From Candidatus Woesearchaeota archaeon (GTDB lineage: Archaea; Nanobdellota; Nanobdellia; Woesearchaeales; UBA9989): a DNA stretch of 64,000 nucleotides. Of this stretch, positions 3,961 through 27,688 are shown piece by piece. Numbering within the stretch: position 1 is the stretch's first letter; the number at the start of each line of letters is the position of its first letter. A program made the position numbers and the translations under genes. Location of the stretch: assembly GCA_013329045.1 (NCBI GenBank), contig DUKZ01000020.1:33489-97488 (forward strand). Direction: 5' to 3'. The notes under the pieces are model-generated. The model saw nothing but the letters and a program-made list of their open reading frames with translations, was not told where the DNA came from and made no database searches.

Positions 3961-6900
3961 CTATTTCTGATTATCTTCCTTTCCTTCTTCTTCTAAAAAG
4001 AACTCGACGATCCCTTTTCGATAGCGAAAGAAGATGAGGAGGAGGACAATGATCACAACGCCAACAACAATATATGCATAGTAGTCAGCAAGCCTCTTCC
4101 CAAGGAAATCAAGGAACCCGGTTATCCCTTCAGGGCCAAGGACAGGGAGATCTTCTCCTCCTCTGACCTCAAGCATGACCGTTTCAGAGGAGATGATTCC
4201 TCCCCTGCCATCATCCGCATTAAAGACGATATAGTCTGTTCCTTCCCAATTCTTTTCTGGTTGAAGGGTCACAATGCCTCCGGAGACATCGACACTGATG
4301 TGTTTTGGCTTTGAATGCGTAAATGATAAAGGGTCATAGTCAGCATCAAAAAAGTGGGTAGTGAGGTCTATTGTGTGAGGGGTGTTTTTCTCCCATACCT
4401 GCGCCGTAAAGTTTTGGATGATTACAGGATAGTTATCGTTTGCAGGAACCTTTGGGACAAGGTAATAGCCAATTGTCCCGATGAGCAAGAGCACAAGGAC
4501 GATAAGGGGTATGACCCACCATCGCTTCTTCTCTTCCCTTTCCTCTTCCTTTTCCTTTTCTCCAGCGCCTACTGCATATTCTCCTGGGGGAACAAGTGGG
4601 CTTTCATAATACACAAGAGTATCATCGCTTCCGATGCGAAGGAGGTCATTGGATTTCCACTCCTGCACCCCATTCGTAAAGAACATCATATCATCATCAG
4701 CTAGTCCGTGCTTGTCTAGCCATCGTTTTTCTACCCGTACCCTGATCTTTGCCTCTTTGAGCTTGTTTCTCGAGAGATTTTCGAGTGAGACTGAGAAATA
4801 ATCATAGACATGTTCTGCGGGTGGCAGGAGTGATGGATTGTTTATTTGGCCAACTTCTGCAGAGACGCCAAAGGCTTTCTCTTTTGGGATGATGATAAGC
4901 TCAGCAGCACAGCCCTTCTCGAGCAGCAAAACGCCAGGCTTGCGGCTGGTGATCTCTTCCCACGTGATCGAGGAGGAATACTTCCGTCCCCGGATCCATC
5001 TGACGATCAGTACAAGGATGAGCAGCAGCGCAAATCCTGTAACAATGTAAGCGATGACATATAATGCATAGGTAATGAGGAAATAGATAAGACTCGTGAA
5101 GAAGAGGAACAATAACAGCACCCCAACCATTCCGAGGATGAACGATCGTTTTGTTTCATACTCTTCTTGGGCGGTCTCATCTTTTTTCTTATCCTTATCT
5201 TTCAAGGCGTCTTTTGCCTCTTGAACAATCTCTTCATCACCCATACTCTTCCTTTTGGCGATCCAAAGGATAGTTATGAAGAGGGCAAGGAGCACAACCC
5301 CAATGATGATAGAGAGGAGGTAGGGAAAAATATTGTTGATATACCAGGTGTTCTCGATGGAGTCCCAATAATGGTAGGGATACTGCGAGACAATAAGTGC
5401 GAAAACAACAATCCACATCAGGAGGAGTACCCAGGGAAATTGTCTCTTTCCTGCCTGCTTCTCTTCTTTTTTCCTTTGCGCTGATTCACCATCCTGTTTT
5501 CTCTTCCTGATGAAGTAGGCAAGGAGGAGGATGACTATGATTAGTACCGCAAGGATAACATACTGGTAAGCAGGTATCCCTTCTCCCTCTTCAGCTGTTC
5601 CTTGTGTCTGATCGACAATCATAAAGATGACCCATCCAAGCAGGATAACAACAAACAGGATAAAGAGTATCTTTCTGAAGTCCTTAAACCGCTCAAGGGC
5701 TGCAAGCTTCTTCTCTTTAAAGAGAGAGATAAGAGGAACAGGTTGTTTCTCTTCTTTTTCCTTGCCCATTAATTTTCTCTTCGACCGGATAAAAAGGAAG
5801 ATAATGATGAGGACCAATAAGAGGATGAGCGATCCGATCATGATCATAAGAGTGCTGAAATACTCGCTGAGGAACACGATCACTCCAGAACTGCTCTCAG
5901 CACCAAGGAGTTTGATGAGGTAGAGGCCGAGGGCAACAATGACAAGGACAAGGATCAGCACAATGGGAATGACCCAAAAAGGCCTGCCGGCTTTGTCTTT
6001 CCCTGCTGCTTTCTCAGCACGTTTGAACTCTCGTTCCTTCTCTTTTTCAGCCTTCTTTCGTTCTCGTTCTGCCCGTGCTTTTTCCTTCGCAGCTTCTTTT
6101 TCTTTTCTCTTGGCTTCCAGTTCATCCTCCTTGTCAGGAAGAGGCATTGTGGCAAGATAATAGAGGAAAGCGACAAAGAGCAAGAAGAGGAGCAGCATCC
6201 ACCACCAGTTTGCTGACAAGAAATCAGCCACGAGGTAGCGGCTTCCCTGCGATTTTCTGAGTTTGATGGTTGCTTGGATTGATTGTGATACTGATTGGTC
6301 ATCGCTCAGCGCACTGACGACAAAATTATAGTTCCCTTCAGCGGTCTGGCCGGTTGGAGAGAAGACGACCGTGACTGATTGCTGTGTTCCAGGGTCAAGA
6401 GTGACTTGTGAGGGAGCAAAGCTCACCCATGGAAGGTTCGTGAGCAAGGAAACATTTCTTGATTGCCTTCCTTTATTGCCAAGGGTCAATGCCAGGCTTC
6501 GCGGTTGATAATCGATCTTGATATCTTTTTGGTTGATTGCAAGGCTCAGTTCTTCACAAGTGATTGCCTTGATGGTGACGGGCGACTCGAGTAGGACATC
6601 ATCCCTCAAACTTTTGGCACTGATTTTTCCGGTGAACACCCCTGGCTTTGGTGCCCTGACAGAGATATCTACCAATCCATTTGAGGATGGGCCAATCTGC
6701 ACCGTTCGGGCAGGAAGCACAACCCATGGATCAAATGTTGATGTCAGAGTGTACACATTTGTGTACGATGCGATATTGTTTAAGAGGAATGGGATGGTGA
6801 AAGGAGCGCCTGCACAGACCGTATATGCCCCAGATGAAGAAGCAAATACTTGTTTCCCATCTTCAATGACATAACTGCCGGGGGTAAAGAGTGTCGATGG

Positions 6901-7581
6901 GCAAAGGCCCGAGGCCAACTGGAGGGCAAGCTTGTTGTGGGTCTGGGTCTTGATTGCGAATGCATCTAGGGTAAAATGATATCTCCCAGGCTTTGCACAG
7001 GGCGGCCGTATGTTGATGTAAACAGCCCGTTCCTCGCCAGCTTGGAGAGGTAATGCCTGCTCTGAAAAGACAGCAGAGTCTTCAAAGGTATCAAGTGAGA
7101 GGGAATACGTCTCTTCATATGTTCCGGTATTTTTCAGGACAATTTCGTATTGGACAGGACCGCAATCGCATGATGCTGTTGCATCCTGCTTTCCAGACAT
7201 TGTGAGGGTGGAACAAGAAGAGACACTAATGCCCTGCCCAAGGGCTTGTGGCTCACCGAATGTTGAAGTGACCTTTGTTTCAAGAATATAATCCCCTTCA
7301 GCATCGCATGGGACAGTGAGGAATGTGTATACATGTTCTATCTCATCAGGATCCAATTTGAGGACTGCTGGGGCATAGACAGCCCAAGGTGATGCTGTCC
7401 CATCAACTTGCACAAGCGCAGTGTCCTGGGGGCCTATATTCACTGCCTGAATCTTATTTTCGACAGATGAACACGCACAGACATCAAGATGCTCTGGACC
7501 TGAAAGGATGACACTTGCGGAGGCGAGGGGCAAGAGGAAAACTAGGAAGAGAACCAATACAATCTGTCGATTATTCCCCAT
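3961..7581 (-). CDS. Large envelope protein: signal peptide, Cys-containing extracellular beta-domain repeats, then at least 5 modules of paired TM helices separated by K/E-rich charged linkers
   Basis: The ORF is open to 7665. The likely start is the ATG at 7581 (MGNNRQIVLVLF...), which has GGGGGTATCC 4 nt upstream. About 1206 aa. Extracellular cadherin/Ig-like segments occur between the TM blocks. Confidence 0.65.
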   Translation of the reverse strand: MGNNRQIVLVLFLVFLLPLASASVILSGPEHLDVCACSSVENKIQAVNIGPQDTALVQVDGTASPWAVYAPAVLKLDPDEIEHVYTFLTVPCDAEGDYILETKVTSTFGEPQALGQGISVSSCSTLTMSGKQDATASCDCGPVQYEIVLKNTGTYEETYSLSLDTFEDSAVFSEQALPLQAGEERAVYINIRPPCAKPGRYHFTLDAFAIKTQTHNKLALQLASGLCPSTLFTPGSYVIEDGKQVFASSSGAYTVCAGAPFTIPFLLNNIASYTNVYTLTSTFDPWVVLPARTVQIGPSSNGLVDISVRAPKPGVFTGKISAKSLRDDVLLESPVTIKAITCEELSLAINQKDIKIDYQPRSLALTLGNKGRQSRNVSLLTNLPWVSFAPSQVTLDPGTQQSVTVVFSPTGQTAEGNYNFVVSALSDDQSVSQSIQATIKLRKSQGSRYLVADFLSANWWWMLLLFLLFVAFLYYLATMPLPDKEDELEAKRKEKEAAKEKARAERERKKAEKEKEREFKRAEKAAGKDKAGRPFWVIPIVLILVLVIVALGLYLIKLLGAESSSGVIVFLSEYFSTLMIMIGSLILLLVLIIIFLFIRSKRKLMGKEKEEKQPVPLISLFKEKKLAALERFKDFRKILFILFVVILLGWVIFMIVDQTQGTAEEGEGIPAYQYVILAVLIIVILLLAYFIRKRKQDGESAQRKKEEKQAGKRQFPWVLLLMWIVVFALIVSQYPYHYWDSIENTWYINNIFPYLLSIIIGVVLLALFITILWIAKRKSMGDEEIVQEAKDALKDKDKKKDETAQEEYETKRSFILGMVGVLLLFLFFTSLIYFLITYALYVIAYIVTGFALLLILVLIVRWIRGRKYSSSITWEEITSRKPGVLLLEKGCAAELIIIPKEKAFGVSAEVGQINNPSLLPPAEHVYDYFSVSLENLSRNKLKEAKIRVRVEKRWLDKHGLADDDMMFFTNGVQEWKSNDLLRIGSDDTLVYYESPLVPPGEYAVGAGEKEKEEEREEKKRWWVIPLIVLVLLLIGTIGYYLVPKVPANDNYPVIIQNFTAQVWEKNTPHTIDLTTHFFDADYDPLSFTHSKPKHISVDVSGGIVTLQPEKNWEGTDYIVFNADDGRGGIISSETVMLEVRGGEDLPVLGPEGITGFLDFLGKRLADYYAYIVVGVVIIVLLLIFFRYRKGIVEFFLEEEGKEDNQK

Positions 7582-7724
7582 AAGGATACCCCCACTATTT
7601 TGATACCATTCAAGAATGGATACTTTATATACTTTTATATCTCTCAATGGATAGGATAAAAACAACTAAACGTGAACGTAATTCAGGACCAAAAGATAAA
7701 AAAAAGGAGAAAAAAATGAAAAAA

Positions 7725-9125
7725 TTAATAGTAGGTTTGTGATCCTTCCCCTTCATCCTCATCTTCACCCTTCAGCTTGTTAAAGCCGATGATGAGAGCA
7801 AGGATGACAAGGAGAACCACAAGCACTACAAAGCCGATTTCAAGCCCCTTCTTGAGGCTGCCCCATTGAGCAGTTGTTGTAGTAGACTGTGCAGGCCCAA
7901 CAACATTCCCTTTGAGGATGACCTGTTTGAGGGTCTCGCCATCTGACATGATACTGACCAAGAGTGCCTGTTCGCCGGCAGCAGCTGTATCTTTTGGGGT
8001 GACAAAGATAAACAATGCCTTCGATTCGCCAGCTTGAGCAACGACAGTGCTAGAGGGGCTCACTTTTGTATCTGCCCAGCCGCCAACTGCTTCTGTGGTG
8101 ATAGTATAAGTCTTTGCAGACCTTCCCTGGTTCATGAGGGTCACTGGATACACTGCGCCTTTGTCCCTGGCAACATCCTGTGCTTCAGGGCCAATGGAGA
8201 TGATTGTTTTTGCTGCGCCAGAAGGAGAAGAGCCGCTGTCAGATGATGATCCGCTGTCCGTTTCTGATGCACTAGTATCAGCAGCAGGGGTGACAAAGAT
8301 GCTTGTCTCCTCGATAACAGTCTCATCACCATCATCATAGGTAGCTTCAATGATAACCCTGTATTCGCCTTTTCTTGCATCTTCAGGGATCCTCATATAG
8401 AGTTCTTCAGAGGTAGTTGACTCATCTTCAGAAAGCTCATCAATATAATCAGAAGCGCTAATACCTAGTTCTGGTATGCTCACGCGTACCTTTATGCCGT
8501 TGTTCTCATCTTTGTTGCCAACATTCTGAACGCGTACAGTTGCAAGGAATGCTCGGCCAGCCATGACTGTTCGTTCGGGGGAAAAGACTGCATCCTTGAT
8601 GATGACAGAATGGCTTTGAGCTTCAACCTCTATATTGTATGTTTCAGTTAGGGTAAACTGTCTTCCGCTGACTCGAACCTGCAATGAATACCTGTCCTGG
8701 ACAAGCCTATAAGGCAATTGCAGTTTAAGATCCTCGACATAAGAGACTCCTTCTTGGGCATTGAATGCATCAGAGACATCTTGGATGAAATCATTGCCGT
8801 CATATCCCCTGATAACTGCCTCAACCTGGAGATCCTCTAGTTCCCGGATCAGGTCAGGGTTGTCATTTCCCCTGATATTAAGGTGGGAATCAGAGTAAGC
8901 AGAAAGATTTTGTGAAACCTCAACTTCTACGAGCACACTAATCTCATCGCCGCGATCAACGCTTCTGATAAGTGCGGTTCCTCCTGTCTTTACTTCCCTG
9001 TCATTGACTTCGACAGAGGTTATGCACACAGGACCGCTGGTGCAAGCAGCACTAACAGCTCCAGCGAGAGCTAGTGCCAGAAGTGCAAAGATGAATGCAC
9101 TCATGAACATCTTTGTGGTTTTCAT
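7725..9125 (-). CDS. Secreted/anchored surface protein (signal peptide, Ser-rich linker, C-terminal TM anchor)
   Basis: N-terminal signal MKTTKMFMSAFIFALLALALAGAVSAAC. SASETDSGSSSDSGSSPSG linker. C-terminal hydrophobic helix plus an acidic tail. GGGGGTATATAAC lies 4 nt upstream of the ATG. Confidence 0.6.
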   Translation of the reverse strand: MKTTKMFMSAFIFALLALALAGAVSAACTSGPVCITSVEVNDREVKTGGTALIRSVDRGDEISVLVEVEVSQNLSAYSDSHLNIRGNDNPDLIRELEDLQVEAVIRGYDGNDFIQDVSDAFNAQEGVSYVEDLKLQLPYRLVQDRYSLQVRVSGRQFTLTETYNIEVEAQSHSVIIKDAVFSPERTVMAGRAFLATVRVQNVGNKDENNGIKVRVSIPELGISASDYIDELSEDESTTSEELYMRIPEDARKGEYRVIIEATYDDGDETVIEETSIFVTPAADTSASETDSGSSSDSGSSPSGAAKTIISIGPEAQDVARDKGAVYPVTLMNQGRSAKTYTITTEAVGGWADTKVSPSSTVVAQAGESKALFIFVTPKDTAAAGEQALLVSIMSDGETLKQVILKGNVVGPAQSTTTTAQWGSLKKGLEIGFVVLVVLLVILALIIGFNKLKGEDEDEGEGSQTYY

Positions 9126-9270
9126 AGTTATATACCCCCCAAACTCTTGTTTATCTTTAAATTTGGTACACTGTTATTATTTTCATATTGTAACAGCGTA
9201 TTGTATTTAAACTTTTCGGTGTTTTAGTATACCTCAGTAGTTAAATTATTTAACTACTCGATAGTGTTAT

Positions 9271-12200
9271 CTAAGACACTATCAATTCGCGATGTTTTAC
9301 ACGCCGAATGAAGTCATCGCTGATGACAAAGCGCACATCATACACGCCAGGTGGTGCGTATTCTGGAACATTGAGGGAAAGCGTCCTTGTCACGACTTTT
9401 CCAGAGCTCACGTCAAAAGGTCCAATCTTCCTATAGACGCCAAGTTCTGGTATGACCATCGTGACATGCACATCATTCATCTTGATGTATCCCTCATTGC
9501 CAAAAGAGATGGCAACGGGCACGCTCTCACCTGCATCGACAGTGTCCCCCTCGATGAAGACGATGCTTCCGACCTCAACTTTTCGTTGAGAATAGGTATC
9601 ATCAAAGGAATATCTGGTCCTGATGGCATATTCCTGGTCGGTGACCATGTTTTCACTCATCGCCCGTATAGTCACAGGGTTCTGGCCGATCTGTGATTCT
9701 GTTGGGACCCAAAGGACTATGCCAGAGTCGCTGTCGATGGTCATGCCAAGCGGTGCAGCAACCAGTGAATAGGTGATGTGGCCACCATCTGGATCGATAG
9801 CGTTTGCATCATACATGTACACTTCGCCGACAAATGCAACACCGATGGGCGTTGAGATGAATCGTGCGCCATCCGCAATAGATTGGATGGTGATTGTTGC
9901 ATCATCATAATCCGACAAGCCATCAGGATCTGTTGCAATGAATCGGAATGCTTCTGCTCCATTAAAATCCTGTGCTCCTCGGATATGCGCAATGTTTTGT
10001 GAGTCTATAGTGATAGAGATTTCACCAGTGCCAGACAGGCGTTGGGTTGTCCAGGCGATCTCATCATCGCTGTTGTCTTCATCAGTGACATAGCTATTAA
10101 GGTCTAGGGATACCTCTTGATCTTCGTCAAGGAACTGGTCTGGGATATCACTGACAACTGGTGCATCTGCAACGGGTGTGATAGTGACAACAAAGGATGC
10201 CTCACTGAACAAGCCCGTGGAATCTGTTGCTCGCACGGTCGCTTCGCAGACACCATTGAAGTTAGAAACAGGAGTAATATCAATGTTCTTTGAGGGATCA
10301 AGGATAATGCCGCAAAGATTGTTATGAGTAACAGAGACCAGGTTAAATGTTAAGGAGGCATCTGGATCATCAGCATCTGTCACATAGTTGAGCAATGAAA
10401 ATGCGTCATTCCGGACAGTATCTTCAGTGAGTGTCTGGTCTGGAAGAGTACTCCAGACAGGCCCATCATTCACTGGCGTGATGGTCAAGGAAAATTGTGC
10501 TGATATGTTGTTACAGGATAATTGTACGTTTTCAGTTCCAGTAAAGTCATGTTCGAGTGAATTGATGACCAGATCATTCCCGGTAAAGTTGAGTGAATAA
10601 TGGGTGTGCGCGGAGACAACATTCACAGCTTCAGTATCATCTGGATCGGTGCAAAGAAGCTTTAATCCCCCATACACAAGGGTCCCGCTGGGACTATCTT
10701 CAGGAACGCTCTTGTCAGTGAGTGTCTGCCACACGGCAGGTTCATCCTCATCATCATCTCCAGGGGTAGTGCAGCCTGGATCATTCCTGTCAATGAGCCC
10801 ATCGCCATCATTATCAAGGCCGTCAGTGCATTGTGTTGGGCCATTGTTTGTTTCATCATTGTCAATCCTGCTCGTGCATCCCCAATCTGCTGGATAATCA
10901 ATCCAGCCATCACCATCATTATCAATGCCATCCTGGCACTGCGTCGTGCCATCTGATTCATCATCATCCATCGGAGAAGAACAGCCAGGGTCTTGCATGT
11001 CGATGACCCCATCATTATCATTATCAAGGGTGTCTGAACACTGGGTCCTGCCTGGATTGAATGGGCCTTCATCATTATCCTGCAAAGAAAAACAGCCGGG
11101 ATCATCAGGAGAATCAACAAACAAGTCGCCATCATTATCGATACTGTCCTGGCACTGCGCTCGTGGCAACAACTCATCGTCGTCATTCACGTGTGAACAG
11201 CTAAAATCAGCAGGGTAATCTGTTGCCCCGTCAGCATCATTGTCAACATGATCATTGCACTGGCCATATTCAGAATCATCTCCAGGGTCTGTGCAGAGTG
11301 GATCATTCCTGTCAATGAGCCCATCGCCATCATTATCAAGGCCGTCAGTGCATTGTGTTGGGCCATTGTTCGTCTCATCATCATCAGTAGGAGAAGTGCA
11401 TCCCCAATCAGCAGGATAATCAATCCAGCCATCACCATCATTATCGATGCCATCACTGCAGGCAAAGGTTGTTTGAGTGACCGTCAAGGTAACAGAATTG
11501 CTCTGGGCACTTCCCCCCCGCCCATCATTCGCGGTAAAGACGACATGCTCAACACCATGGAAGGATGCTGGTTGATTGAAGGAAACAACATTCCCTGAGC
11601 CAATAACAACAGTAATGTTAGGATTATCAGCAGCAGAAGCAGTATAAGTCAAAACATCTCCATCTACATCGCTGAAATAATTATCAAGATCAAAAGCATT
11701 ATTCCGAGAAGTGCCCTGATTCCATGTTTGGGCAGGGATGGGATTAGCATTTGGATCAAAATTAGGATTATCATTGACAGGAACAACACTCACCCTGAAT
11801 ATGTCGCTTCCAGTAAGACCTTGGCTATCATGGACGATCACAGTAGCATCACACACACCATGGAAATTTGCAGCAGGTGTGATATCAATATTATCCAGTG
11901 CATCAATGCTAACACCGCAAAAGTTGCTGTTGGAAACAGAGATGGTGTATATCAATGTGCTGTCAGGATCCTCATGATCTGATGCAAAATCATTCAGGTT
12001 GAATGTATTTAGGAGTTGTGTGTCCTCATTTAGTATCCGGTCAGGAAGATTGGTTATGATAGGAGCCTCATTTTCATCATCATCTCCAGGGGTAGTGCAT
12101 CCTGGATCATTCCTGTCAATGAGCCCATCGCCATCATTATCAAGGCCGTCAGTGCATTGTGTTGGGCCATTGTTCGTTTCATCATCATCAGTAGGAGAAG

Positions 12201-15200
12201 TGCATCCCCAATCAGCAGGATAATCAATCCAGCCATCACCATCATTATCGATGTTATCACTACACTGCGCTGCAGTCTGGGTTAGGTGAACTGCCATGCT
12301 GTCCTGGCCGGTGGCGCCATGAGGATCCCTCACCTGCACAGTAACACCGCAGGTGATTGACTGGCCTTGAGGGATTGTTGCTGTAAAGAGCAGCTCTTCT
12401 TGCGCATTTATCTCAAAATGGCACTCTGGGATGCCGCTGCTGGTGATAGCAAAACTAAGTTCCGTATCATCCGGATCGAATGACTCGGCATTAAGATCAT
12501 GGAGAACTACTAATCCTTGGATGTCCTGCAAGGTCACATCTGCAAGAGAGATGGTAGGAGGACCGTTTTCATCATTATCATTACGGTCATCGCACTGTGG
12601 ATCATCCTGGTCAATGGCAATATCAGCATCGTTGTCAATGCCATCAGAACATTGTGTATTCCCGTTGTTTGTCTCATCATCATCCCGGGGGCTGGTGCAA
12701 CCAAAATCTGCTGGATAATCTATCGCGCCATCATTATCATTATCTAGCCCATCAGAACATTGAGGGATCGCTGCCACCTGGAACTGGAAGGTAAACAGAT
12801 TGTTTGCTTCATTCGTCTCATGATAGACATTGTTTGGATCAACCTGGATGGCAAAAAAATGCGTTCCAGCACTCAAATGGCCAAGGTTCACTGAGGTCAT
12901 AAAAGAAGCTGAAGGAAATGGCAGTGTTGGAATGGAGGTAATAACATTCGAATCAAGCGTTACTCTCACCGGTAGGTTTGTTGGAATGCCGGCATTTGCG
13001 GGGATCTTATGAGTGTTAAACTGGACTATGGCATTCTGATTTATAGTAATAGGACTATTTTGGAGAAACCCATTATCAATCAAGAGATCAAAGGTATTGG
13101 ACTCATCATCATCTGCAGTGCTGGTGCATCCAGGATCAGCAGGGTAGTCTATGAGCGTATCGCCATCATTGTCTAGCCCATCAGAGCACTGGGTCCTGCC
13201 TGGATTGAACGGTCCTTCATCATTGTCCTGTAAAGAAAAACAGCCAGGATCATCGGGATAATCAACAAACAAGTCGCCATCATTATCTATGCTGTCCTGG
13301 CACTGCGCTCGTGGCAACAGCTCATCGTCGTCGAAATAAGATGAACAGCTAAAATCATTTGGGAAATCGACTGCGCCGTCTTGATCATTGTCTTGGCTGT
13401 CTGAACATTGCGTATAATCACATCCCTGGACAGGTGAACAGATAAACGAGCATTGGTCGATGGTAGTGCTCACAACATTTTCACAGAAGCTAGAGTCTGT
13501 TCCTCCATTTCGGCATGTTGGGGTAGTGGTAGTGGTCACAAACCCGTTATTCACATTACAGGAGTTAGAGCTAGAGATACTGCCGCAATCATTATTCACA
13601 TAGCAGATGATAGGTCCATCAGACTCATCATCATCTATTGGAGAGGAACATCCAGGATCGGCAGGATAATCAATTCTAGTATCACCATCATTATCGATGC
13701 CATCATTGCATTGGAATACTTGGCGAACAACAGTCAACACGACAGAATTACTCTGAGCAGAACCGCCAAGACCATCACGAGCAGTAAAAACAACACGCTC
13801 AACACCAAAAAAAGAAGCGGCCTGAGTAAAAGAAACAACATTCCCTGAGCCAATAACAACAGTAATGTTAGGATTATCAGCAGCAGAAGCAGTATAAGTC
13901 AAAACATCACCATCAACATCAACAAAAAAGTTATCAAGATCAAAAGCATTATTCCGAGAAGTACCCTGAGTCCACGTCTGATCAGGAATAGGATTAGCAA
14001 GAGGATCAAAATTAGGATTATCATTAACAGGAACAACAATCACACGAAAAACATCACTGCTGGAAAGACCAGAAGGATCACGAACAGTAACAGTAACATC
14101 ACAAAAACCATTAAAATTATTTTGAGGCGTGAGATCAACATTCTTACCTGAATCAACAACAACACCACACTGATTACTAGTAGTAACAGCAAGAACATAA
14201 TTCAATTGTGAATCAACATTATCAGGATCAGAAGAAAAATCATTAAGATTAAAAGCATTATCCCTCGAAGTATCCTCATTCAATGTTTGATCAGGAAGAC
14301 CAGCAATAACAGGAGGCTGATTCGGAACGGGTATGACAAAGACCTGTGCACTCCCAACACCATTCGTTGGTATGTCCCTTGCCTGAACAACGCAATTTCC
14401 TGCTGCAATGCCTGTCAGCAGCCCATTTTGGTTTACTGTGCAGAATGCAGTTCCCTGGCTAATGCTCCATGCATAGCTCGTCCCGCCAGTTGCAGTGAAT
14501 TGCTGTGTCTGTCCAACAGTGATTGTCGCAGGGTTTGGTAAAACAACAACAGATGCAGGGTCTGGAAACTCTGATGGATCATCTGGCCCTGTACAGTCCG
14601 GATCATCCTGGTCGATAAATCCATCACCGTCATTGTCTATGCCATCAGAACATTGTGTTGGGCCATTGTTTGTTTCATTGTTATCTTCTGGGCTGGTACA
14701 GCCAAAATCTGCCGGATAGTCTATTTCCCCATCGCCATCATTATCAATGAAATCTGAGCATTGTGGTGTTGATGGGCCTTGAACGTGGATTGAGATTATC
14801 GAGGACATGGGCGTTATAGTCAGCCCATTGCATCGTGGATCAGTGGGAAATCCTTCAACAGTAACAAAATGATCACCAGGTACTGTTGGTATATAAGTGA
14901 ATGATGCAGGTCTTGGTGTAACAGCGTCAGGATTTGCTGCTAAGGTCTCTTGTTGAGAGAATACCTGTGTTCCGGTCACAATCCCAGTTTCAGTTACTCG
15001 TGTTTGTACAGGGAACAGATTGTGATTGTTGTCAGCATAGTTGCTGATTCTATTATAAGAGAACGTCACTGTTTGCCCAACCTGAGGCTGAGCATTTGAC
15101 GCGACAAGATTGTTGATTATAGTGTAGCACTCGTTTGTTGGCCTGGCTTCCAGGACAACAAGATTTTCGTAGGCGTTATCTGCTACTTTATTATTTTGAT

Positions 15201-15948
15201 TGCATTGTGAATCTGTAACATCAGTGTCTATATGGATTTGGTAATTTCCCGGTGTGGCAGGCGTCCAGACAAACCGGACTGTTTCTGTGCTGTCCATGAA
15301 GATGTTAACATCACGAGAATCTGTATAGATAACCTGCCCTGTTCCAAGCTGCTCTACTTGAAGGGTAATCCTGGTCATCGCTGAATAGTACTCATCCTTC
15401 AATGCCAGCAGTGCAGGATCATCTGGAGGAAGCCAGTTTGGAAAGCCATTATTGAGCCTATAGAAAGGAGAGTTTGCATCCGCAGCGATGTTTGCGGGTA
15501 CATCAATGACCAATGGTTCATTTGCATAGACAGAGTTTTCTGTCACGAGATTGCCGATCTCTGCCCTGCAGAAATCGCCTTTGAAGAATTCTACTTTTTG
15601 GGAAAAATCTCCAGTGGTAGGCGTTGTTGTGTACGTTTGCTTGAGCGGCATGTATCCTTGCTTATGATAATAGAGCCCATACCACCACGAACCGGAATCC
15701 GGCCGGGCTATGTTGAAGACTGATACTGCATCACCTGAATTTCCTTGAAGATAACCATAGATAGAATTGCAGGGTTGGTCTTGGCATTGCGCCAGCAGAA
15801 CATCAACACCCGTCACAAGATTCTGGGTTACCTTATCAGCAAACGTTACTGTATATCGCGACGTTCCCGCCGCTGAAACTGGAATGATTGATGTCACCAA
15901 AAAGATGGTAACAAACAAGGTTAGGAATTGTTTAGAGTTCATGATCAT
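9271..15948 (-). CDS. Giant (2225 aa) secreted adhesin-like protein with Asp-rich Cys-bounded DNDGDG repeats (thrombospondin-type-3-like Ca-binding), cadherin-like modules and He_PIG-type Ig-like modules
   Basis: Signal peptide MIMNSKQFLTLFVTIFLVTSIIPVSAAG. About 20 repeats of C-[ST]-D-G-[IL]-D-N-D-G-D-G-x-I-D-Y-P-A-D-x-G-C. VVPVNDNPNF cadherin-type motifs. A C-terminal HITYSLVAAPLGMTIDSDSGIVLWVPT motif. GGGGGAAC lies 3 nt upstream of the ATG. Confidence 0.75.
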   Translation of the reverse strand: MIMNSKQFLTLFVTIFLVTSIIPVSAAGTSRYTVTFADKVTQNLVTGVDVLLAQCQDQPCNSIYGYLQGNSGDAVSVFNIARPDSGSWWYGLYYHKQGYMPLKQTYTTTPTTGDFSQKVEFFKGDFCRAEIGNLVTENSVYANEPLVIDVPANIAADANSPFYRLNNGFPNWLPPDDPALLALKDEYYSAMTRITLQVEQLGTGQVIYTDSRDVNIFMDSTETVRFVWTPATPGNYQIHIDTDVTDSQCNQNNKVADNAYENLVVLEARPTNECYTIINNLVASNAQPQVGQTVTFSYNRISNYADNNHNLFPVQTRVTETGIVTGTQVFSQQETLAANPDAVTPRPASFTYIPTVPGDHFVTVEGFPTDPRCNGLTITPMSSIISIHVQGPSTPQCSDFIDNDGDGEIDYPADFGCTSPEDNNETNNGPTQCSDGIDNDGDGFIDQDDPDCTGPDDPSEFPDPASVVVLPNPATITVGQTQQFTATGGTSYAWSISQGTAFCTVNQNGLLTGIAAGNCVVQARDIPTNGVGSAQVFVIPVPNQPPVIAGLPDQTLNEDTSRDNAFNLNDFSSDPDNVDSQLNYVLAVTTSNQCGVVVDSGKNVDLTPQNNFNGFCDVTVTVRDPSGLSSSDVFRVIVVPVNDNPNFDPLANPIPDQTWTQGTSRNNAFDLDNFFVDVDGDVLTYTASAADNPNITVVIGSGNVVSFTQAASFFGVERVVFTARDGLGGSAQSNSVVLTVVRQVFQCNDGIDNDGDTRIDYPADPGCSSPIDDDESDGPIICYVNNDCGSISSSNSCNVNNGFVTTTTTPTCRNGGTDSSFCENVVSTTIDQCSFICSPVQGCDYTQCSDSQDNDQDGAVDFPNDFSCSSYFDDDELLPRAQCQDSIDNDGDLFVDYPDDPGCFSLQDNDEGPFNPGRTQCSDGLDNDGDTLIDYPADPGCTSTADDDESNTFDLLIDNGFLQNSPITINQNAIVQFNTHKIPANAGIPTNLPVRVTLDSNVITSIPTLPFPSASFMTSVNLGHLSAGTHFFAIQVDPNNVYHETNEANNLFTFQFQVAAIPQCSDGLDNDNDGAIDYPADFGCTSPRDDDETNNGNTQCSDGIDNDADIAIDQDDPQCDDRNDNDENGPPTISLADVTLQDIQGLVVLHDLNAESFDPDDTELSFAITSSGIPECHFEINAQEELLFTATIPQGQSITCGVTVQVRDPHGATGQDSMAVHLTQTAAQCSDNIDNDGDGWIDYPADWGCTSPTDDDETNNGPTQCTDGLDNDGDGLIDRNDPGCTTPGDDDENEAPIITNLPDRILNEDTQLLNTFNLNDFASDHEDPDSTLIYTISVSNSNFCGVSIDALDNIDITPAANFHGVCDATVIVHDSQGLTGSDIFRVSVVPVNDNPNFDPNANPIPAQTWNQGTSRNNAFDLDNYFSDVDGDVLTYTASAADNPNITVVIGSGNVVSFNQPASFHGVEHVVFTANDGRGGSAQSNSVTLTVTQTTFACSDGIDNDGDGWIDYPADWGCTSPTDDDETNNGPTQCTDGLDNDGDGLIDRNDPLCTDPGDDSEYGQCNDHVDNDADGATDYPADFSCSHVNDDDELLPRAQCQDSIDNDGDLFVDSPDDPGCFSLQDNDEGPFNPGRTQCSDTLDNDNDGVIDMQDPGCSSPMDDDESDGTTQCQDGIDNDGDGWIDYPADWGCTSRIDNDETNNGPTQCTDGLDNDGDGLIDRNDPGCTTPGDDDEDEPAVWQTLTDKSVPEDSPSGTLVYGGLKLLCTDPDDTEAVNVVSAHTHYSLNFTGNDLVINSLEHDFTGTENVQLSCNNISAQFSLTITPVNDGPVWSTLPDQTLTEDTVRNDAFSLLNYVTDADDPDASLTFNLVSVTHNNLCGIILDPSKNIDITPVSNFNGVCEATVRATDSTGLFSEASFVVTITPVADAPVVSDIPDQFLDEDQEVSLDLNSYVTDEDNSDDEIAWTTQRLSGTGEISITIDSQNIAHIRGAQDFNGAEAFRFIATDPDGLSDYDDATITIQSIADGARFISTPIGVAFVGEVYMYDANAIDPDGGHITYSLVAAPLGMTIDSDSGIVLWVPTESQIGQNPVTIRAMSENMVTDQEYAIRTRYSFDDTYSQRKVEVGSIVFIEGDTVDAGESVPVAISFGNEGYIKMNDVHVTMVIPELGVYRKIGPFDVSSGKVVTRTLSLNVPEYAPPGVYDVRFVISDDFIRRVKHRELIVS
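11538..12093. repeat. Intragenic long repeat copy 1 (cadherin-like module duplication within the giant adhesin gene)
   Basis: A 77-nt block is identical at 11581-11657 and 13839-13915, with flanking high similarity. The encoded peptides are about 190 aa and nearly identical. Confidence 0.8.
13728..14298. repeat. Intragenic long repeat copy 2
   Basis: Partner of 11538..12093. Several shorter DNDGDG-unit nucleotide repeats recur at about 10790, 11305 and 12110. Confidence 0.8.
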
Positions 15949-15960
15949 GTTCCCCCGATT

Positions 15961-18570
15961 TTATTCGATCGTTGAGCCTCCAATGCCGCCGCTTCCTCCT
16001 CCAGATCCACCGCCGCCAATGCCTCCAGTGCCAACTGATGGGATGATGGGTCCTGGTCCGCCATTGCCGCCAATTCCTGGCGGCCCCTGTGGTCCAGCGG
16101 GTCCTTGTGGTCCAGAACCTCCATTAGCGCCAGGTGGGCCTTGTTGTCCCTGAGGGCCTCTCTCTGGTCCATCAAAAAGATCGATGAGCTGTGTCACTGT
16201 TGAGATGAATGAAGCGATACCATACAACCCATCCAGGAAGACACCAAATGAGGCAGGTCCAACAACCCTGCTTCTCCTGAGAGGAGAAAATCCTCTAGCT
16301 TCAAAATTAAGGTCTGCTGCCCCATCAAAGCCAAGATTATGCCATTCTCCACCAGAAAGACGTTCTTGGCCAGTTAAGATAAGATCGCCATAATGTCCTT
16401 CTCCAACTCCATACGATGTTTGAACAGGATCCTTGAATACAATGAGACCAAGAAGAGGTATACCAGAAAAAGGCCGAGACTCATGGAGGTGGTTCATTGC
16501 AGGCATGACAGGACCCCACATTTGGTCATCGAGACCAACATAGGGGAATAGTCCATGTGTATTTTGAAATCGAACAGCACCAATACGATAATGTTCAGGT
16601 TCATTGATGGTTGATAGGAGTTGTTGTCTTGTCGCTTCTGGCAGTGCATCACCAGCAGCAAAATCAATGTTGCCTATGCCATTCCATGCATCTCGCACCC
16701 AATTTATTTGATCTCTGCTGCTCACTCTATCAGGTCGCTGACGGATTCTTTGTGCCCTAAACCGATGGAAATTAGCATTCACCTGATAATCGCTTCCTTT
16801 AAGTGCTAAGCGTTTATCAACAAGTGCTAATACTAATGTATCATACGGTTTGTTCAGGACTAACGTATCCAGGTCGACCGGTGGATTATTCACCCAATCA
16901 GCCCTTCTGTTCTCTTCTGTCGTGATGGGTTGAACATAGGTAGTGAGGAATTTATCTTCCTCACCTGGTAAGATGATTGGTACCATCCCGGTATACGGGT
17001 CAGTACTCATAGGAATACGAGCTTGTTCGCCATGTCGGACAGCAACAGCAAGAAGCAACGGGCTAACCCTATCACGTAAAAGATATCCTGTGGGCCGCTG
17101 TTCTAGCAGGGTTATTCGCAACTCATGATCCGCAATAGTCTCGCCATGTTCACTCACAGCGCTTTCAAGACTGCTCACCCTCCTTTCTAGTCTTGTGTAT
17201 AAGCTGCCAAGCTGCTCTATTTGCCCCGCTACCCAACCCCTGAAAGTTGGATATCCCTCAAGGATCGTATGCCATTCATTCCACCATACCCTGATGGACC
17301 CGCAAAGGTCATCTAAGACTGGTGGTTCAATATGAGAGGTTTCTCTTTGTTCTTCAAGGCCTCTCCCGACAGCATATAGGGTTTCCAGCATTGTCCTAAT
17401 CTCGGTTGTCCTGACAACAAAGTAAGGGGTGTTAGTATCCGGATTAGTGGTAGTGCGGCCCCATTCATACACAGCAGCGAGGGCTTCAAGGCTCCTGCCT
17501 GTCAGTCGGACAAGTCCTGGCCTTCGTTCTGTTGTCTCATCGAGGTATATCTCTGCCGGGAAGATGATATCTCCTGATTGCCCGTGACCAAACGCGTATG
17601 ATCCATGGCCTCTGGCTCTTCCGTTCGCAAAGACATAATAGGTTCCATCATCATTAACCCTGAACGTGACAGTTTGGTTTCTTGTGACATAATCTACAAG
17701 ACCTGCCTGGTCATTGTCAAACATATGGGTTAATTCCCTAACGACAGAATCACCCGCTCCATGGGTAGTAACATAATCTGCAATTGCATCGCTCCAGGCT
17801 TGCCCTGGTTCTGATCGTAAAGTCAGGCTTCTTCCTTGTCCAATGCTTTGGAAGCCTTCAAACTCGTTTGTAGTGACGGTGGATCGTGGATCCCTAGCTT
17901 CTGTTCGAACAACGCTCGCATGACTATACCCCATTTGGCCGAATTCAAAATAACGGAGCATAGAGGCAACTAATGTCTGTTGAACATCATCGACAGTGGT
18001 CATATCATTTGGAACGCCGGTGATATGGAGCGATGCGCGGGTGCTGGCAGTGTTCAGCCATACTTCCATCTCTCTGACCATTCCAGGCAGGTCGATTCTT
18101 TCTTCTTGGTAGTCATACCATATCTGCGCTCTTTTTGAGTCATCTCGGATATCAAAGAACACATAGCGCTCTCCTGCATCGGTAAGATGCATATTCCGGG
18201 GGACTGTTCCAGCCCATAATTGAAGATCAGGGGTCTCCATTCCATAGTGTGAGAGGAGGGATGGAAGGGCAATTTGCTGTCCTTGGCCTCCGTCAGCTGC
18301 AGGTGCGTCTGCTGCCGGTGCTGTTGTTGCAGCAGAGACTGGTGCTGCCATGCCGGTAAAGAGAGTGAGTGCGCCAAGGGCAAGAATTGCTGAATTGGGG
18401 ATAGTTCTTCCATGATAAACTTCAGGATTTCCTTCATGTCCTCCAAGGCGAAGGCTCAGCCCTTCTAACGTTTCTAAACCGCCTGTTTTTTGCAGAGCTC
18501 GAGAAGCATAATCTGAAAGGTGGTCAAGCCCATAGTGTTTCCCACCAAGTCCCCGTGATTGATCTGTCAT
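15961..18570 (-). CDS. Secreted protein with a C-terminal collagen-like G-X-Y repeat tail
   Basis: The ORF is open to 18624. The probable start is the ATG at 18570 (MTDQSRG...), with AAGGGGGTACC upstream. A hydrophobic signal-like segment AILALGALTLFTGMAAPVSA. The C-terminus is GPQGQQGPPGANGGSGPQGPAGPQGPPGIGGNGGPGP, then Gly-rich. Only 12 nt separate it from the downstream giant gene. Confidence 0.6.
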   Translation of the reverse strand: MTDQSRGLGGKHYGLDHLSDYASRALQKTGGLETLEGLSLRLGGHEGNPEVYHGRTIPNSAILALGALTLFTGMAAPVSAATTAPAADAPAADGGQGQQIALPSLLSHYGMETPDLQLWAGTVPRNMHLTDAGERYVFFDIRDDSKRAQIWYDYQEERIDLPGMVREMEVWLNTASTRASLHITGVPNDMTTVDDVQQTLVASMLRYFEFGQMGYSHASVVRTEARDPRSTVTTNEFEGFQSIGQGRSLTLRSEPGQAWSDAIADYVTTHGAGDSVVRELTHMFDNDQAGLVDYVTRNQTVTFRVNDDGTYYVFANGRARGHGSYAFGHGQSGDIIFPAEIYLDETTERRPGLVRLTGRSLEALAAVYEWGRTTTNPDTNTPYFVVRTTEIRTMLETLYAVGRGLEEQRETSHIEPPVLDDLCGSIRVWWNEWHTILEGYPTFRGWVAGQIEQLGSLYTRLERRVSSLESAVSEHGETIADHELRITLLEQRPTGYLLRDRVSPLLLAVAVRHGEQARIPMSTDPYTGMVPIILPGEEDKFLTTYVQPITTEENRRADWVNNPPVDLDTLVLNKPYDTLVLALVDKRLALKGSDYQVNANFHRFRAQRIRQRPDRVSSRDQINWVRDAWNGIGNIDFAAGDALPEATRQQLLSTINEPEHYRIGAVRFQNTHGLFPYVGLDDQMWGPVMPAMNHLHESRPFSGIPLLGLIVFKDPVQTSYGVGEGHYGDLILTGQERLSGGEWHNLGFDGAADLNFEARGFSPLRRSRVVGPASFGVFLDGLYGIASFISTVTQLIDLFDGPERGPQGQQGPPGANGGSGPQGPAGPQGPPGIGGNGGPGPIIPSVGTGGIGGGGSGGGSGGIGGSTIE

Positions 18571-18776: not shown

Positions 18777-19859
18777 ATGATAGCGATAATTGGTGCTGGG
18801 CCAGTCGGGAATTATGTGGCATATCTTTTGGCATCAAATAATATCGCTGTTGAGGTGTTCGAAGAACACGGTGAAGTGGGGATCCCCTGGCAGTGCACAG
18901 GGATCACGACGGCCAGCTTCGAAAAAATTGTCGAGCTTCCACCAAAGCTGATTATCAATCGGCTAAGAAAGCTCAAGATTGTTTCAAGACGTCATTCTGT
19001 GCGAATGCCAATCGAAGAGATCGTTCTAGACCGCGTCGGGCTGGATAAGCATTGGTATGAAGAAGCAAAAAAGAGTGGGGCAAAGTACCATCTCAATTGC
19101 CGTTTCGAAAGGAAAGAAGGAAAGAGCGTCATAGTGCTAGACAAGAAGGCAGGAAAAGAAATGATGATACAGCCGGACCTGCTCATAGGTGCTGATGGGC
19201 CAAGCTCAAAAGTATCTGCGCTGATCAATCCAAAGCCGGCAAGGACATTCTTTGGGTATCAGGTGAGGATCAAGGGGGAATATGATGCGGAATGTTTTGA
19301 GACTCATTTCATTGATGATCATTTGTTTTACTGGGTTGTCCCAGAATCAGCAACAGTTGCCAGGATCGGCACTTTTTGCACCAGTTTTGACAGCAGAGCA
19401 TGGGAAGCATTTTTGCAGAGGAGATGTGGAAAAAAGGCAAAAGGGCTAATCATCAACGCTCAGCCAGGAAAGATCCCTTGGTATTCGGGAGAAAAGATTA
19501 TAGAGAAGGATGGCATCAGGATTGTTGGGGATGCTGCTGGGCAGGTGAAAGCAACTACAGGAGGAGGCCTAGTCCCAGGGTTTTTGGCAGCAAAGGCGCT
19601 GGCACGATCAATCATAAAAAATACTTCTTATGCAAAGGAAGTGGGGGAAGTGCACCGGCAGCTTTCAGTGAGTTTATATCTCCGGAATATCCTTTCTCGC
19701 TGTTCAGTTGAGGATTATGATGCGCTGGTGAGATATCTTGACCAGGGAAGGATCAAGAGGCTGCTCTACAAGATTGATAGGGATCATCCAATCCAGCTCG
19801 CCTGGAGGGCAGCAGTGCTCGAGCCAAGGCTTCTTCGTTTCTTGCCCAAACTTTTATAA
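18777..19859 (+). CDS. FAD-dependent oxidoreductase, geranylgeranyl reductase family
   Basis: N-terminal IAIIGAGPVGNYVAYLL Rossmann motif. About 360 aa, matching the GGR-family length and pattern. Confidence 0.55.
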   Translation: MIAIIGAGPVGNYVAYLLASNNIAVEVFEEHGEVGIPWQCTGITTASFEKIVELPPKLIINRLRKLKIVSRRHSVRMPIEEIVLDRVGLDKHWYEEAKKSGAKYHLNCRFERKEGKSVIVLDKKAGKEMMIQPDLLIGADGPSSKVSALINPKPARTFFGYQVRIKGEYDAECFETHFIDDHLFYWVVPESATVARIGTFCTSFDSRAWEAFLQRRCGKKAKGLIINAQPGKIPWYSGEKIIEKDGIRIVGDAAGQVKATTGGGLVPGFLAAKALARSIIKNTSYAKEVGEVHRQLSVSLYLRNILSRCSVEDYDALVRYLDQGRIKRLLYKIDRDHPIQLAWRAAVLEPRLLRFLPKLL

Positions 19860-19874: not shown

Positions 19875-22800
19875 TTGGGCGTGGGTTGTTTCATGGGAGA
19901 AGATGATATTGAGATTGATTTTGGCAAGATCACGAAGTTCTTTAAGAGAGACAAGAAAAAGGCAGAGCAAAAAGAAGCGGCTGATGATCAGGTGCAGGGG
20001 AGTTCTGCTGAGGAAACACCAAAGAGTGGGTCTCCTGAAATAAAAGAGGGAATAAAAGAGGGCGCAAATAAGAGTGCAAAGGGCGATCATGACGATGGAA
20101 AGAATGAAGCAGGCAGCGCTCAGCAATCAGGAGAAGATGCTCAGAAGGATAAAGAGTCTGCAGTAAAAAAGAAACAAAATGGTGCGCACGAGACCAAAGA
20201 TGATAAGGAAGAACAAGATGGTGATGAGAAAGGACAAAGTGATGACGAGATTGCAATTGACTTTTCAAAGATAACAGGCATATTCAGAAAGAAAGAAGCA
20301 AGAGAGAAGGAAAAATCAGAGGCGCAGAAAAAGCAGAGGGTGAGCGAGGAACGAAAAAAGAAACCCGAGTCTGCTGATCTTGAAAAGAAACAAAATGAAA
20401 AGGAACAGGACAGCGAGGATGCTGAGGAAGAGATTTCATTTGACTTTTCAAAGGTAAAAGGGTTGTTCAAGGCAAAAGGCAGAAAGGAAGACGCTGAAGA
20501 AAAAGTTGATGTTCAACCAGTTGTTCATTTTGTCAAGAAGAACAGCAAAGTGCTGATTATGCTCATATTGCTCCTCATCCCGCTATATATAGGGATGGAA
20601 GTGAGGACTTATCCAAACCACCTGCCAATAGCAGACGATATGGCAAAGGAGGTTGTCCAAAGATCGATCCAGGCGCAGATCATAGATCAGGTCAACAACC
20701 AGTATCCAAACCTTCCAGCTGCGCAAAGGCAAAAGATTCTCGAGAAGGAATACCAAAGGGTCGTGAAAGAGAACCAGGCAGGAATTGATCAGCAGGTTCA
20801 GCTGTATGGTAATTATATTCGTGCCCAGATGAAAGTGGGAGAGGAAGATTCACAGACATATCTTCTCGCCATTGATCCGTATCATTGGGCGCGGTATGCG
20901 CGGAACATTGCTGATCATGGATATCCTGGCGATGATCTGCGCGAGGGGCAGAGTTATGATACCTTGATGCACGCACCCTTGGGGAGGTATGTTTCTGGTG
21001 ACAGGTTCCACGCATATTTCGAGGCATACCTGTATAAGTTTGTCCGTCTCTTCGATAAGGATGCTGATTTTCAGGGAGTCATCTTCACCACCCCTATTAT
21101 TATTATAGTGCTCGGGATCATCCCGACCTTCTTCTTGGCAAGGATGATTGCAGGGGACATTGCAGGGTTTGTTGCAGCTCTTATCATTGCAGTCCATCCT
21201 GCGGTAATGTCAAGAACGGTTGGAGGGTTTGCGGATACGGATCCATACCAGATCCTTTTTCCGTTGCTCATCTCATTATTATTCATGTGGGCATATGAGC
21301 TCAAGAAGGTGCAGGGAAAGATCCTGCTCGTGACATTCGCCGGTCTGCTTGTCGGATTATATGCCTCTGCATGGAGGGGCTATTGGCACATCCTTGATTT
21401 TTTAATGGTCGTTGCCATCACACAGCTCTCATTTTATCTCCTTGTACACTGGTCGGAGGTAAAGAAAGGTCTCTTTTCAAAGGAGGCAGTAACCCATGGA
21501 GCGATCATCCTCATCACGTTCATCTTGGCATCTGGCATGTTTATAGGTGTTTTTAGTGAGCATGCTCCGCTCGATATCTTCAGGGAGGCAACAGGTCAGC
21601 CGGTAAAGTTCTCAACAGCAAAGGATGTTGGGATCACCTCAATCTGGCCAAACGTCCTAACAACCGTCGCAGAGCAGAATGAAGCAAGCAGGTCAGAGAT
21701 CATTAGTACGGTCGGTTTTGGCGGGAAGAGCGCCGGAAAATTCCTTTTCTTTTTATGCTTTTTTGGCATTGCTGTTGCGGTCACGGAGAGGTCATGGAAA
21801 AGGAAAAAGGATATGGTTTTCCTTGGTGCAAGTGCCATCTATTATCTGGTGATAATCAGCATGAATGATCGCATCGAAAACACACTCACGCTGTTTTTCC
21901 TCCTTGCAGTTCCATTGATCATCAAGGCATATTTGGCCATTGACGAGAAGGATGAGCATATCAGGATGAGATATGCAGCGCTTATCTTTGTCTGGATTAT
22001 TGCTACTATGTATGCCAGCCAAAAAGGCATCAGGTTTACTTTGATGATGGTTCCAGCTCTCGCAATTGGGCTTGGTGTTGCTGTTGCATTCCTCTTTGAA
22101 CTCATTGACCGGTATGCATCAAGGGAGATGAAGGTTGAAAAGTATCTGATTACCGGGTTCTTGTTCTTGCTTCTTTTCCTCGCATTGTATAAAGGGCCAG
22201 TTGCTGCAGGAAAGGAAGTGGCAAAGAACCAGATTCCAGGGATGAATGATGCGTGGTGGTCTGCACTAGAAAGGATTGATGGTGCAGCCAGCCAGGATGC
22301 GATCATCACCTCCTGGTGGGATTATGGCCATTGGTTTAAGTTTGTTGCAAAGCGTGGAGTGACCTTTGATGGGGCATCACAGAACCTCGAGCCCGCCCAT
22401 TGGGTCGGATTGGTGCTGCTTACAGAAAATGAGACAGAAGCGAAGGATATCTTGAGGTTCTTGACATGCGGCAACTTTTACACGCATGAGTTTCTGCTCA
22501 GGTCAAACTGGTCCAGTGACCCCTATGACCAGGTGATGCTGCTCAAGGAGATCATCCCCCAGAGCCGGGAGGAAGCACGCCAAACCTTGATTAAAAAAGG
22601 GTTCCCGGAGGGCAGCATCACTCAGCTTCTTGATTACACCCATTGTGATCCTCCAGAGGACTATTTTATCGCATCAGATGATATGGTGTCAAAATCTGGG
22701 GTGTGGGCTCATTTTGGCATCTGGGATTTCAAAAGGGCATATATCTATAATACCTTGATAAAGCAGGAATATGCAAGCAAGGAGAAGGCAATAGCATGGC

Positions 22801-27539: not shown

Positions 27540-27544
27540 ACTAA

Positions 27545-27678: not shown

Positions 27679-27688
27679 AGGGGTTCAC

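Follow-up and report, generated by a model that had tools for sequence, protein, structure and literature searches.

What do four adjacent genes for large surface proteins build on the cell of Woesearchaeota GW2011_AR4, a DPANN archaeon, and do they belong together? The genes, here g1 to g4, lie in a 64-kb stretch of its DNA (the window, in which 32 genes were counted) as four co-directional open reading frames (ORFs) on the minus strand, encoding 869 + 2225 + 466 + 1206 amino acids (aa), 4766 aa in all. An earlier note on this DNA had described such a minus-strand envelope cluster with spacers of 12-145 nucleotides (nt), and the ORFs and spacers (12 nt between g1 and g2, 145 nt between g2 and g3 and 143 nt between g3 and g4) are as it claimed. 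The cluster had been read there as a possible adhesion or tethering apparatus. We favour, with moderate confidence, a conserved Woesearchaeota cell-envelope locus, putatively of the surface layer (S-layer), with a swappable adhesin and one lineage-specific gene; the adhesin part of the earlier proposal is plausible for g2, and the conserved core is a putative S-layer pair instead. The four genes are as follows.

15961..18570, minus strand: g1, ORF of 869 aa
9271..15948, minus strand: g2, ORF of 2225 aa (2223 aa from the second ATG)
7725..9125, minus strand: g3, ORF of 466 aa
3961..7581, minus strand: g4, ORF of 1206 aa counted from the ATG

The locus was compared across 82 loci, 80 of them with a g3 relative (one genome per GTDB species) and 2 others, by searching with the window proteins using tblastn and with profile hidden Markov models (HMMs). 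Directly downstream of g3, tblastn placed a g4-like gene in 51 of 68 loci and the HMM did so in 61 of 68. In 45 of the 62 evaluable loci, the gene that immediately precedes g3 on the same strand ends in the C-terminal domain of g2. The g3 and g4 genes are a conserved pair, kept also where the g2-like gene is absent. No counterpart of g1 was detected by tblastn in any of the 82 loci, and with the g3-g4 pair persisting on its own, the four genes do not behave as the single unit that had been supposed.

Within the species, g1 to g4 are contiguous in other assemblies, and g2 of assembly L083 is identical except for 1 substitution. Many contigs of other assemblies end inside g2, breaks that fit the internal DNA repeats of this gene (83-95% identity). 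By exact-sequence look-up, g1, g3, g4 and their neighbours belong to archaeon GW2011_AR4, which comes from Rifle groundwater. In the original AR4 records, g3 and g4 are tagged to contig C0003 and g1 to contig C0007.

The g3 product consists of a signal peptide, domain D1 (residues 33-168), domain D2 (174-279), an S/T-rich linker (283-305), domain D3 (307-408), a transmembrane (TM) helix and an acidic tail whose last residues are TYY. The AlphaFold2 (AF2) model, with a pLDDT of 81.5, folds it into three beta-sandwich (Ig-like) domains and the TM helix. The protein had been described as simply secreted, but its C-terminal TM helix anchors it. Traits of archaeal S-layer proteins were thereby seen in g3 by hydropathy and AF2, namely an N-terminal hydrophobic helix (the signal peptide), beta-rich ectodomains and a C-terminal TM attachment. 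In an NCBIfam scan, g3 matched NF033506 (PACE-CTERM-PROT, "putative S-layer protein") with E 8e-22 (8.4e-22) and 77.6 bits, and we regard it as a relative of this family, not a member by NCBI's own rule. As in that family, the anchor and tail at the C-terminus are conserved, and the match extends to position 620 of the 627-position profile. A homologue search returned at least 370 proteins of roughly 430 aa, the best 120 of which are about 410-460 aa long, belong to Woesearchaeota/Nanoarchaeota and share about 40-50% identity across most of g3; several homologues (40-46% identical) bear the NCBI name "putative S-layer protein". The earlier note had set the cluster apart from a conventional S-layer and had named ordinary S-layer families with operon partners as what would speak against its proposal. 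We found that g3 lies in a large conserved family that NCBI names putative S-layer protein and that it recurs with g4, the S-layer label being a database one. In a field metatranscriptome, S-layer protein genes were among the ten most expressed Woesearchaeota genes, their family not being identified there (PMC11606122).

The membrane anchor deserves separate description.

7767..7859, minus strand: TM anchor of g3 (aa 423-453), by column identity the most conserved part of the family

In the g3-family alignment (A1), column identity is 0.85 in the TM region versus 0.48-0.67 in the ectodomains. The motif GLEIGLVVLVVLLVILGLIIGFNKLKG (GFNKLKG) is followed by an acidic stretch and then the C-terminal TYY, with which the tail ends in 25 of 25 g3-family sequences; within the loci examined, the combination of GFNKLKG, acidic stretch and TYY is limited to g3-family ORFs. 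Such better conservation of the TM helix and TYY than of the extracellular domains is unusual for a plain anchor, and it hints at a conserved membrane partner or processing enzyme.

Next to g3, the g4 product starts with a signal peptide and a 424-aa ectodomain, followed by about 9 TM segments with lysine- and glutamate-rich (K/E-rich) loops and by a 153-aa segment. Two more TM segments then enclose a Big_9/cadherin-like domain, and the protein closes with a short tail. Its main parts are listed below.

6223..7494, minus strand: g4 ectodomain (aa 30-453), Ig-like domains in tandem that contain paired Cys, aligned to the g3 ectodomain by hhalign
4987..6222, minus strand: g4 membrane region (aa 454-865), about 9 TM segments by hydropathy scan
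4096..4446, minus strand: extra Big_9/cadherin-like domain of g4 (aa 1046-1162) between the last two TM segments, found with Pfam Big_9 and Cadherin_5 and NCBIfam tandem-95

When the g4 ectodomain family (A3, 36 sequences) was aligned to the g3 family with hhalign, a probability of 97.9% and E 3.3e-13 over 273 columns were obtained, and the HMM matches of the two families are reciprocal. As judged from these profiles, the g4 ectodomain is paralogous to that of g3. The alternation of TM and K/E-rich segments reported earlier was borne out by the hydropathy scan, with loops of 47, 28, 18 and 32 aa that are presumed to be cytoplasmic. The 51 complete g4 orthologues have a median length of 740 aa (range 452-1378 aa) and carry a signal peptide, an ectodomain and between 2 and 9 TM segments, in many cases with K/E-rich loops; the C-terminal part of g4 was matched by tblastn in 28 loci. 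A search for PGF-pre-PGF, which had been recommended, gave 28.8 bits against a cut-off of 28 on aa 899-994 of g4, a segment between TM segments on the predicted cytoplasmic side, and the NCBIfam scan placed no PGF-CTERM in any of g1 to g4. In same-species assemblies, g4 measures 1166 aa (L085, 6303-9803) or 1199 aa (L087, 3091-6690) versus 1206 aa. The former lacks the C-terminal 40 aa and the latter 7 aa (YAYIVVG); both differences are confined to the last TM segment and the tail, and could be strain variation or assembly errors.

The giant protein g2 has a signal peptide, no TM anchor and an isoelectric point of 4.05. Three regions were distinguished.

14809..15948, minus strand: N-terminal domain of g2 (about 350-380 aa), found by tblastn and BLASTP in some positional orthologues
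10771..14760, minus strand: variable middle of g2, 17 acidic double-disulfide repeats interleaved with Big_9/tandem-95/Cadherin_5
9274..9633, minus strand: C-terminal domain of g2 (about 105-120 aa, "VIPELG ... RVKHRELIV" at the C-terminus), homologous to g3 D2 by hhalign

The C-terminal domain relates g2 to g3 by homology. An alignment of 42 C-terminal domains from genes upstream of g3 (A2) was compared with the g3 family by hhalign (98.7%, E 3.6e-16) and aligns to g3 residues 168-265, that is, D2, with an IPELG motif common to both. Across the 64-kb window, the A2 HMM matched the g2 C-terminus (E 1e-40) and g3 D2 (E 3e-13) only, and no D2-like domain was found with it in the other large surface proteins of the window. 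How widely the domain occurs was judged from the 82 loci only, a word-index profile search of a 5.8-billion-protein set having given 2 matches. The products of the upstream genes that carry the domain measure between 142 and at least 2451 aa, and the complete ones mostly have a signal-peptide-like N-terminus. Their middles are mutually unrelated (Cys-rich, PKD, cadherin-like or acidic repeats) and their C-terminus is conserved (...SNDxxxRVxHRxIxI). On this comparison, g2 represents in this species a secreted, hypervariable protein whose middle is swapped freely between species. The N-terminal domain of g2 gave tblastn matches in 12 loci and is 29-33% identical by BLASTP to proteins of L016, L055, L057, L066, L072 and L075; Pfam gave no match to it.

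The middle of g2 is built of repeats. Pfam recognised Big_9 seven times (E 5e-43, 146 bits), Cadherin_5 four times (59 bits), He_PIG and Big_2, in agreement with the cadherin-like and He_PIG modules that had been read from the translation. By NCBIfam, g2 belongs to tandem-95 NF012211 (140 bits, cut-off 90) and to NF033662, "acidic double-disulfide repeat" (15 stretches, E 4e-81, 266.3 bits, cut-off 41). The Cys-bounded DNDGDG repeats had been put at about 20 and likened to thrombospondin type 3; a regular expression for C..DNDGDG..D..C units counted 17 copies, and Pfam TSP_3 (PF02412) had no match in g2 at E <= 0.01. Sequence comparison with solved structures gave no match to the acidic repeat. 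The DNDGDG core fits the DxDxDG calcium-loop motif, and by its make-up g2 is plausibly a calcium-dependent adhesin. The internal DNA repeats mentioned above indicate that the middle holds recent intragenic DNA duplications.

The g1 product begins with 57 aa that precede a hydrophobic stretch resembling a signal peptide. A large domain and a short coiled-coil-like helix come next, and the C-terminal tail is Gly-rich and differs by 12 aa in length between assemblies.

16051..16158, minus strand: collagen-like stretch of g1 (aa 805-840), 12 uninterrupted G-X-Y triplets by regular expression

A collagen-like tail had been proposed, and the stretch amounts to only these 12 triplets; Pfam Collagen (PF01391, a model of 20 G-X-Y triplets) gave no match in g1 at E <= 0.01. 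Sequence searches of Pfam, NCBIfam and PDB gave no match either, and the exact protein occurs in no public assemblies other than those of the same species. An exhaustive phmmer search of 1.84 billion representative proteins with the tail removed returned g1 itself and P0152, which was rejected as a homologue on account of sharing merely a short helical repeat. A word-index search, saturated by the low-complexity tail, returned the protein's own cluster only, and no relatives were found in viral contigs. PHROG gave a marginal tail-fibre match (E 0.0046) confined to the G-X-Y stretch. The single-sequence AF2 model of g1, at pLDDT 32, was unusable.

We also looked at the place that g1 occupies. 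In 29 loci with the FAD reductase divergent upstream of g3, the slot between the reductase and g3 holds 0-5 genes; the extra genes are mutually unrelated, and several have signal-anchor-like N-termini. Relaxed phmmer and tblastn comparisons of g1 with the same-slot genes of other species gave no match; one of these genes (L016_3108_5369) ends in a Gly-rich tail resembling that of g1. Orphan proteins between the reductase and the g2-like gene were seen at L016:3108-5369, L055:2811-4190, L075:3344-6570, L066:2395-5839 and L069:3673-6741. In five extra slot genes that were scanned, Pfam found nothing significant (one marginal LysM match), and it found no domain on L016:3108-5369, L055:2811-4190 and L066:2395-4077. 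Surface genes that evolve fast or arise de novo seem to gather in this variable slot, and on the searches made g1 is a species-specific orphan there, not part of a conserved machine.

How the genes are read out can be suggested from the spacers and start signals.

9126..9270, minus strand: g2-g3 spacer, with an inverted repeat just past the g2 stop, TATA-like AAAGTTTAAATA and AAATTTAAAGATA, and GGGGGG 9 nt before the ATG
7582..7724, minus strand: g3-g4 spacer, with an oligo-T tract at the g3 stop, TATA-like ATATAAAAGTATATAAAG, and GGGGG 7 nt before the ATG

Since TATA-like boxes precede both g3 and g4 and a long oligo-T run follows g3, these two genes may form separate transcription units, the boxes acting as putative promoters and the oligo-T run, which is archaeal terminator-like, as a putative terminator. 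The signals fit a g3 that is separately and strongly expressed. Between g1 and g2 there are 12 nt, and the two are probably co-transcribed. The GGGGG reported before each ATG was seen 3-9 nt upstream in all four genes; in g2 it stands 9 nt ahead of the second ATG, the start called in other assemblies, like those of g1, g3 and g4. Within 18 nt upstream of the start, GGGGG occurs in 7 of the 32 window genes, g1 to g4 all included (hypergeometric p ~0.001), and looks like a strong Shine-Dalgarno variant serving a gene subset. A cluster-specific regulatory motif was considered and rejected, as three further window genes carry it.

Taken together, these features suggest how the envelope locus could work. 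The main wall protein, or putative protomer, would be g3, with three Ig-like domains outside the cell, held by its C-terminal helix and acidic TYY tail. Most likely g4 would act as a membrane-embedded partner or base of the g3 layer, its related ectodomain being fused to a many-pass body. Exported by its signal peptide and having no anchor of its own, g2 would be retained by its C-terminal copy of g3 D2 docking on or within the layer of g3, and its acidic middle, stiffened by calcium, would bind a partner cell or surface. The remaining protein, g1, would be a species-specific membrane-anchored protein with a collagen-like tail, probably an accessory surface fibre. A more specific version, which we offer only tentatively and consider rather doubtful, is that the C-terminal domain is a dedicated docking module derived from the middle domain of the protomer that plugs interchangeable and rapidly evolving adhesins into a conserved wall lattice, that the upstream slot is a cassette site for host or surface specificity, and that g4 couples the lattice to the cytoplasm via its K/E-rich loops.

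Several observations weigh against the envelope reading. The 77.6 bits of g3 fall below the curated cut-off of 110 bits for NF033506, and the alignment covers only profile positions 264-620 of 627, leaving the first ~260 positions uncovered; moreover, "S-layer" is a database name for the g3 family, and its role in a lattice is putative. N-glycosylation sequons (N-x-S/T) are few, with 1 in g3 and 5 in g2. In 13 of the 62 evaluable loci there is no g2-like gene and the divergent FAD reductase gene abuts g3, and 7 of 68 loci have no detectable g4. The TM region of g4 is poorly conserved (3 tblastn matches in related loci), which argues against a specific helix-helix fit with the g3 anchor. Finally, the D2-like domain may not serve in docking and could simply be an Ig module that was duplicated.

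Some of these points would suit a dedicated host-attachment apparatus, in which g3 and g4 are not wall proteins and serve as a membrane base presenting g2, and g1, to a host. Such a base would agree with a family that is S-layer only by name and whose cut-off g3 does not reach, with a g3 that is small for an archaeal S-layer protein and poor in sequons, and with the specific membrane or cytoplasmic partner suggested by the invariant TM helix and TYY tail; g2 carries cadherin-like and Ca-loop modules, and DPANN archaea are described as mostly host-attached. However, the g3-g4 pair is retained in those 13 of 62 loci where no g2-like gene is present, and g3, at about 40-50% identity across species, is far more conserved than adhesins usually are. 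With g3 apparently having its own promoter and terminator, and g1 not being conserved at all, we judge a dedicated attachment apparatus to be unlikely.

Quite improbable, in our estimate, is that the genes are mere neighbours, g1 being an unrelated recent acquisition, such as a viral fibre remnant, and g2 a freely released calcium-binding matrix or biofilm protein. The missing homologues of g1, its weak PHROG tail-fibre match on the G-X-Y stretch, a slot that holds 0-5 unrelated genes in other species and the lack of a membrane anchor in g2 would all fit this. However, g1 ends 12 nt before g2 and has the same GGGGG signal, and neither viral relatives of g1 nor integrase or mobile-element genes beside it were found. 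The C-terminal domain of g2 is conserved and always encoded adjoining g3, which is hard to square with a diffusing protein. The conserved envelope locus with a swappable adhesin remains the reading that we prefer.

Woesearchaeota are among the most widespread uncultivated archaea. With g4, the candidate wall protein g3 has a fixed genomic partner. In about three quarters of species, the gene immediately upstream of g3 codes for a variable surface protein with a copy of a wall-protein domain. The locus yields testable candidates for how these small archaea hold their hosts, and the C-terminal domain provides a sequence handle to find Woesearchaeota adhesins in metagenomes. We found no published description of the fixed three-gene arrangement, of an S-layer-derived C-terminal domain on hypervariable proteins or of a polytopic paralogue with K/E-rich loops, and nothing specific in the literature on PACE-CTERM, the acidic double-disulfide repeat or Woesearchaeota surface proteins.

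Beyond the four genes, the neighbourhood holds further features of the envelope. Two genes diverge from the cluster and were identified with Pfam.

18777..19859, plus strand: geranylgeranyl-reductase-like FAD enzyme
19875..23492, plus strand: STT3/AglB oligosaccharyltransferase

Both recur upstream on the opposite strand, the FAD reductase in 36 of the 82 loci and AglB in 30, and DUF192 recurs downstream of g3 in 39 loci. The adjacency of AglB may be positional only, because sequons are few, and a heavily N-glycosylated S-layer glycoprotein was rejected on the same ground; the S/T-rich linker of g3 could carry O-glycans. Many archaeal S-layer proteins are glycosylated, though not all of them. 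The AglB/STT3 of the window is very long (1205 aa, TTG start, STT3 domain 325-769), and that of the related locus L002 (14253-17645) is fused to rotamase (peptidyl-prolyl isomerase) domains. At 24653-30373 and 55489-56748, bacterial-type heptose pathway genes adjoin AglB and GT2 genes in this archaeon. The set comprises two SIS/GmhA-like genes, an HldE-like fusion of PfkB and cytidylyltransferase and two GT9 heptosyltransferase-like genes, which suggests heptose-containing glycans on the envelope.

A low-GC island spans 42000-52000 (36-40% GC versus about 46% elsewhere). In it lie genes for a subtilase of 1366 aa (43623-47723) and for a CARDB/He_PIG/CBM96 surface protein of 1128 aa (48438-51824), in neither of which the D2-like domain of g2 and g3 was found; the island may be a horizontally acquired surface-protein island. 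On the other flank of the cluster, the T2SSE-like ORF at 27-875 (plus strand) is the 3' part of a 767-aa ATPase that is whole in L083. In relatives T2SSF-like genes follow this ATPase, so the envelope locus is probably flanked here by a cluster for the assembly of a pilus or archaellum. Rfam found a tRNA at 3020-3137 (plus strand, 47.5 bits, 118 nt for a 71-position model) that probably contains an intron; ARAGORN found no tRNA in the window. Among the related loci, many public records of metagenome-assembled genomes with this locus of Woesearchaeota type bear the title "uncultured Methanosarcinales", "Aminicenantes bacterium" or "Saccharibacteria bacterium" (L005-L008, L011, L014, L018, L049, L077 and others), titles that look like taxonomic mislabels or bin contamination.

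How does this locus compare with known systems? Its components are of familiar types: Ig-domain proteins that are S-layer-like, and giant adhesins built of repeats. By sequence, g3 is related to the NF033506 family, whose model names the close g3 homologues and whose conserved C-terminal anchor g3 shares; we found no experimental characterisation of this family and no paper using its name. As a working analogy, the SlaA/SlaB operon of Sulfolobales likewise consists of adjacent co-directional envelope genes, one of which gives membrane attachment. There is no sequence relationship, however, and g3 and g4 differ in being both membrane-anchored and mutual paralogues; g4 is polytopic with K/E-rich loops and not a coiled-coil stalk with a single membrane pass. 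The SlaA/SlaB system is described in PMC11329633.

For g2, an analogy is the S-layer-associated protein BslA of Bacillus anthracis, which shares SLH domains with Sap/EA1 in the way that g2 shares its D2-like module with g3. SLH domains bind cell-wall polysaccharide, whereas g2 and g3 have in common a beta-sandwich of Ig/CARDB-like type, placed mid-protomer in g3, whose docking is putative. With the giant repeat adhesins of NF012211 and NF033662, g2 has in common the repeats that pass both cut-offs, and unlike such adhesins in general it adds family-specific domains at both termini that go with the g3 locus of Woesearchaeota. In a comparison of motifs, thrombospondin type-3 repeats are Cys-bounded like the DNDGDG units of g2, which TSP_3 leaves unmatched. 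Prokaryotic and phage collagen-like proteins (Scl, BclA and tail fibres) resemble g1 in its Pro/Gln-rich G-X-Y run near the C-terminus; in contrast to them, g1 has only 12 triplets, and its remainder matches nothing. Overall, the locus stays within a known logic, that of an S-layer with attached accessory proteins.

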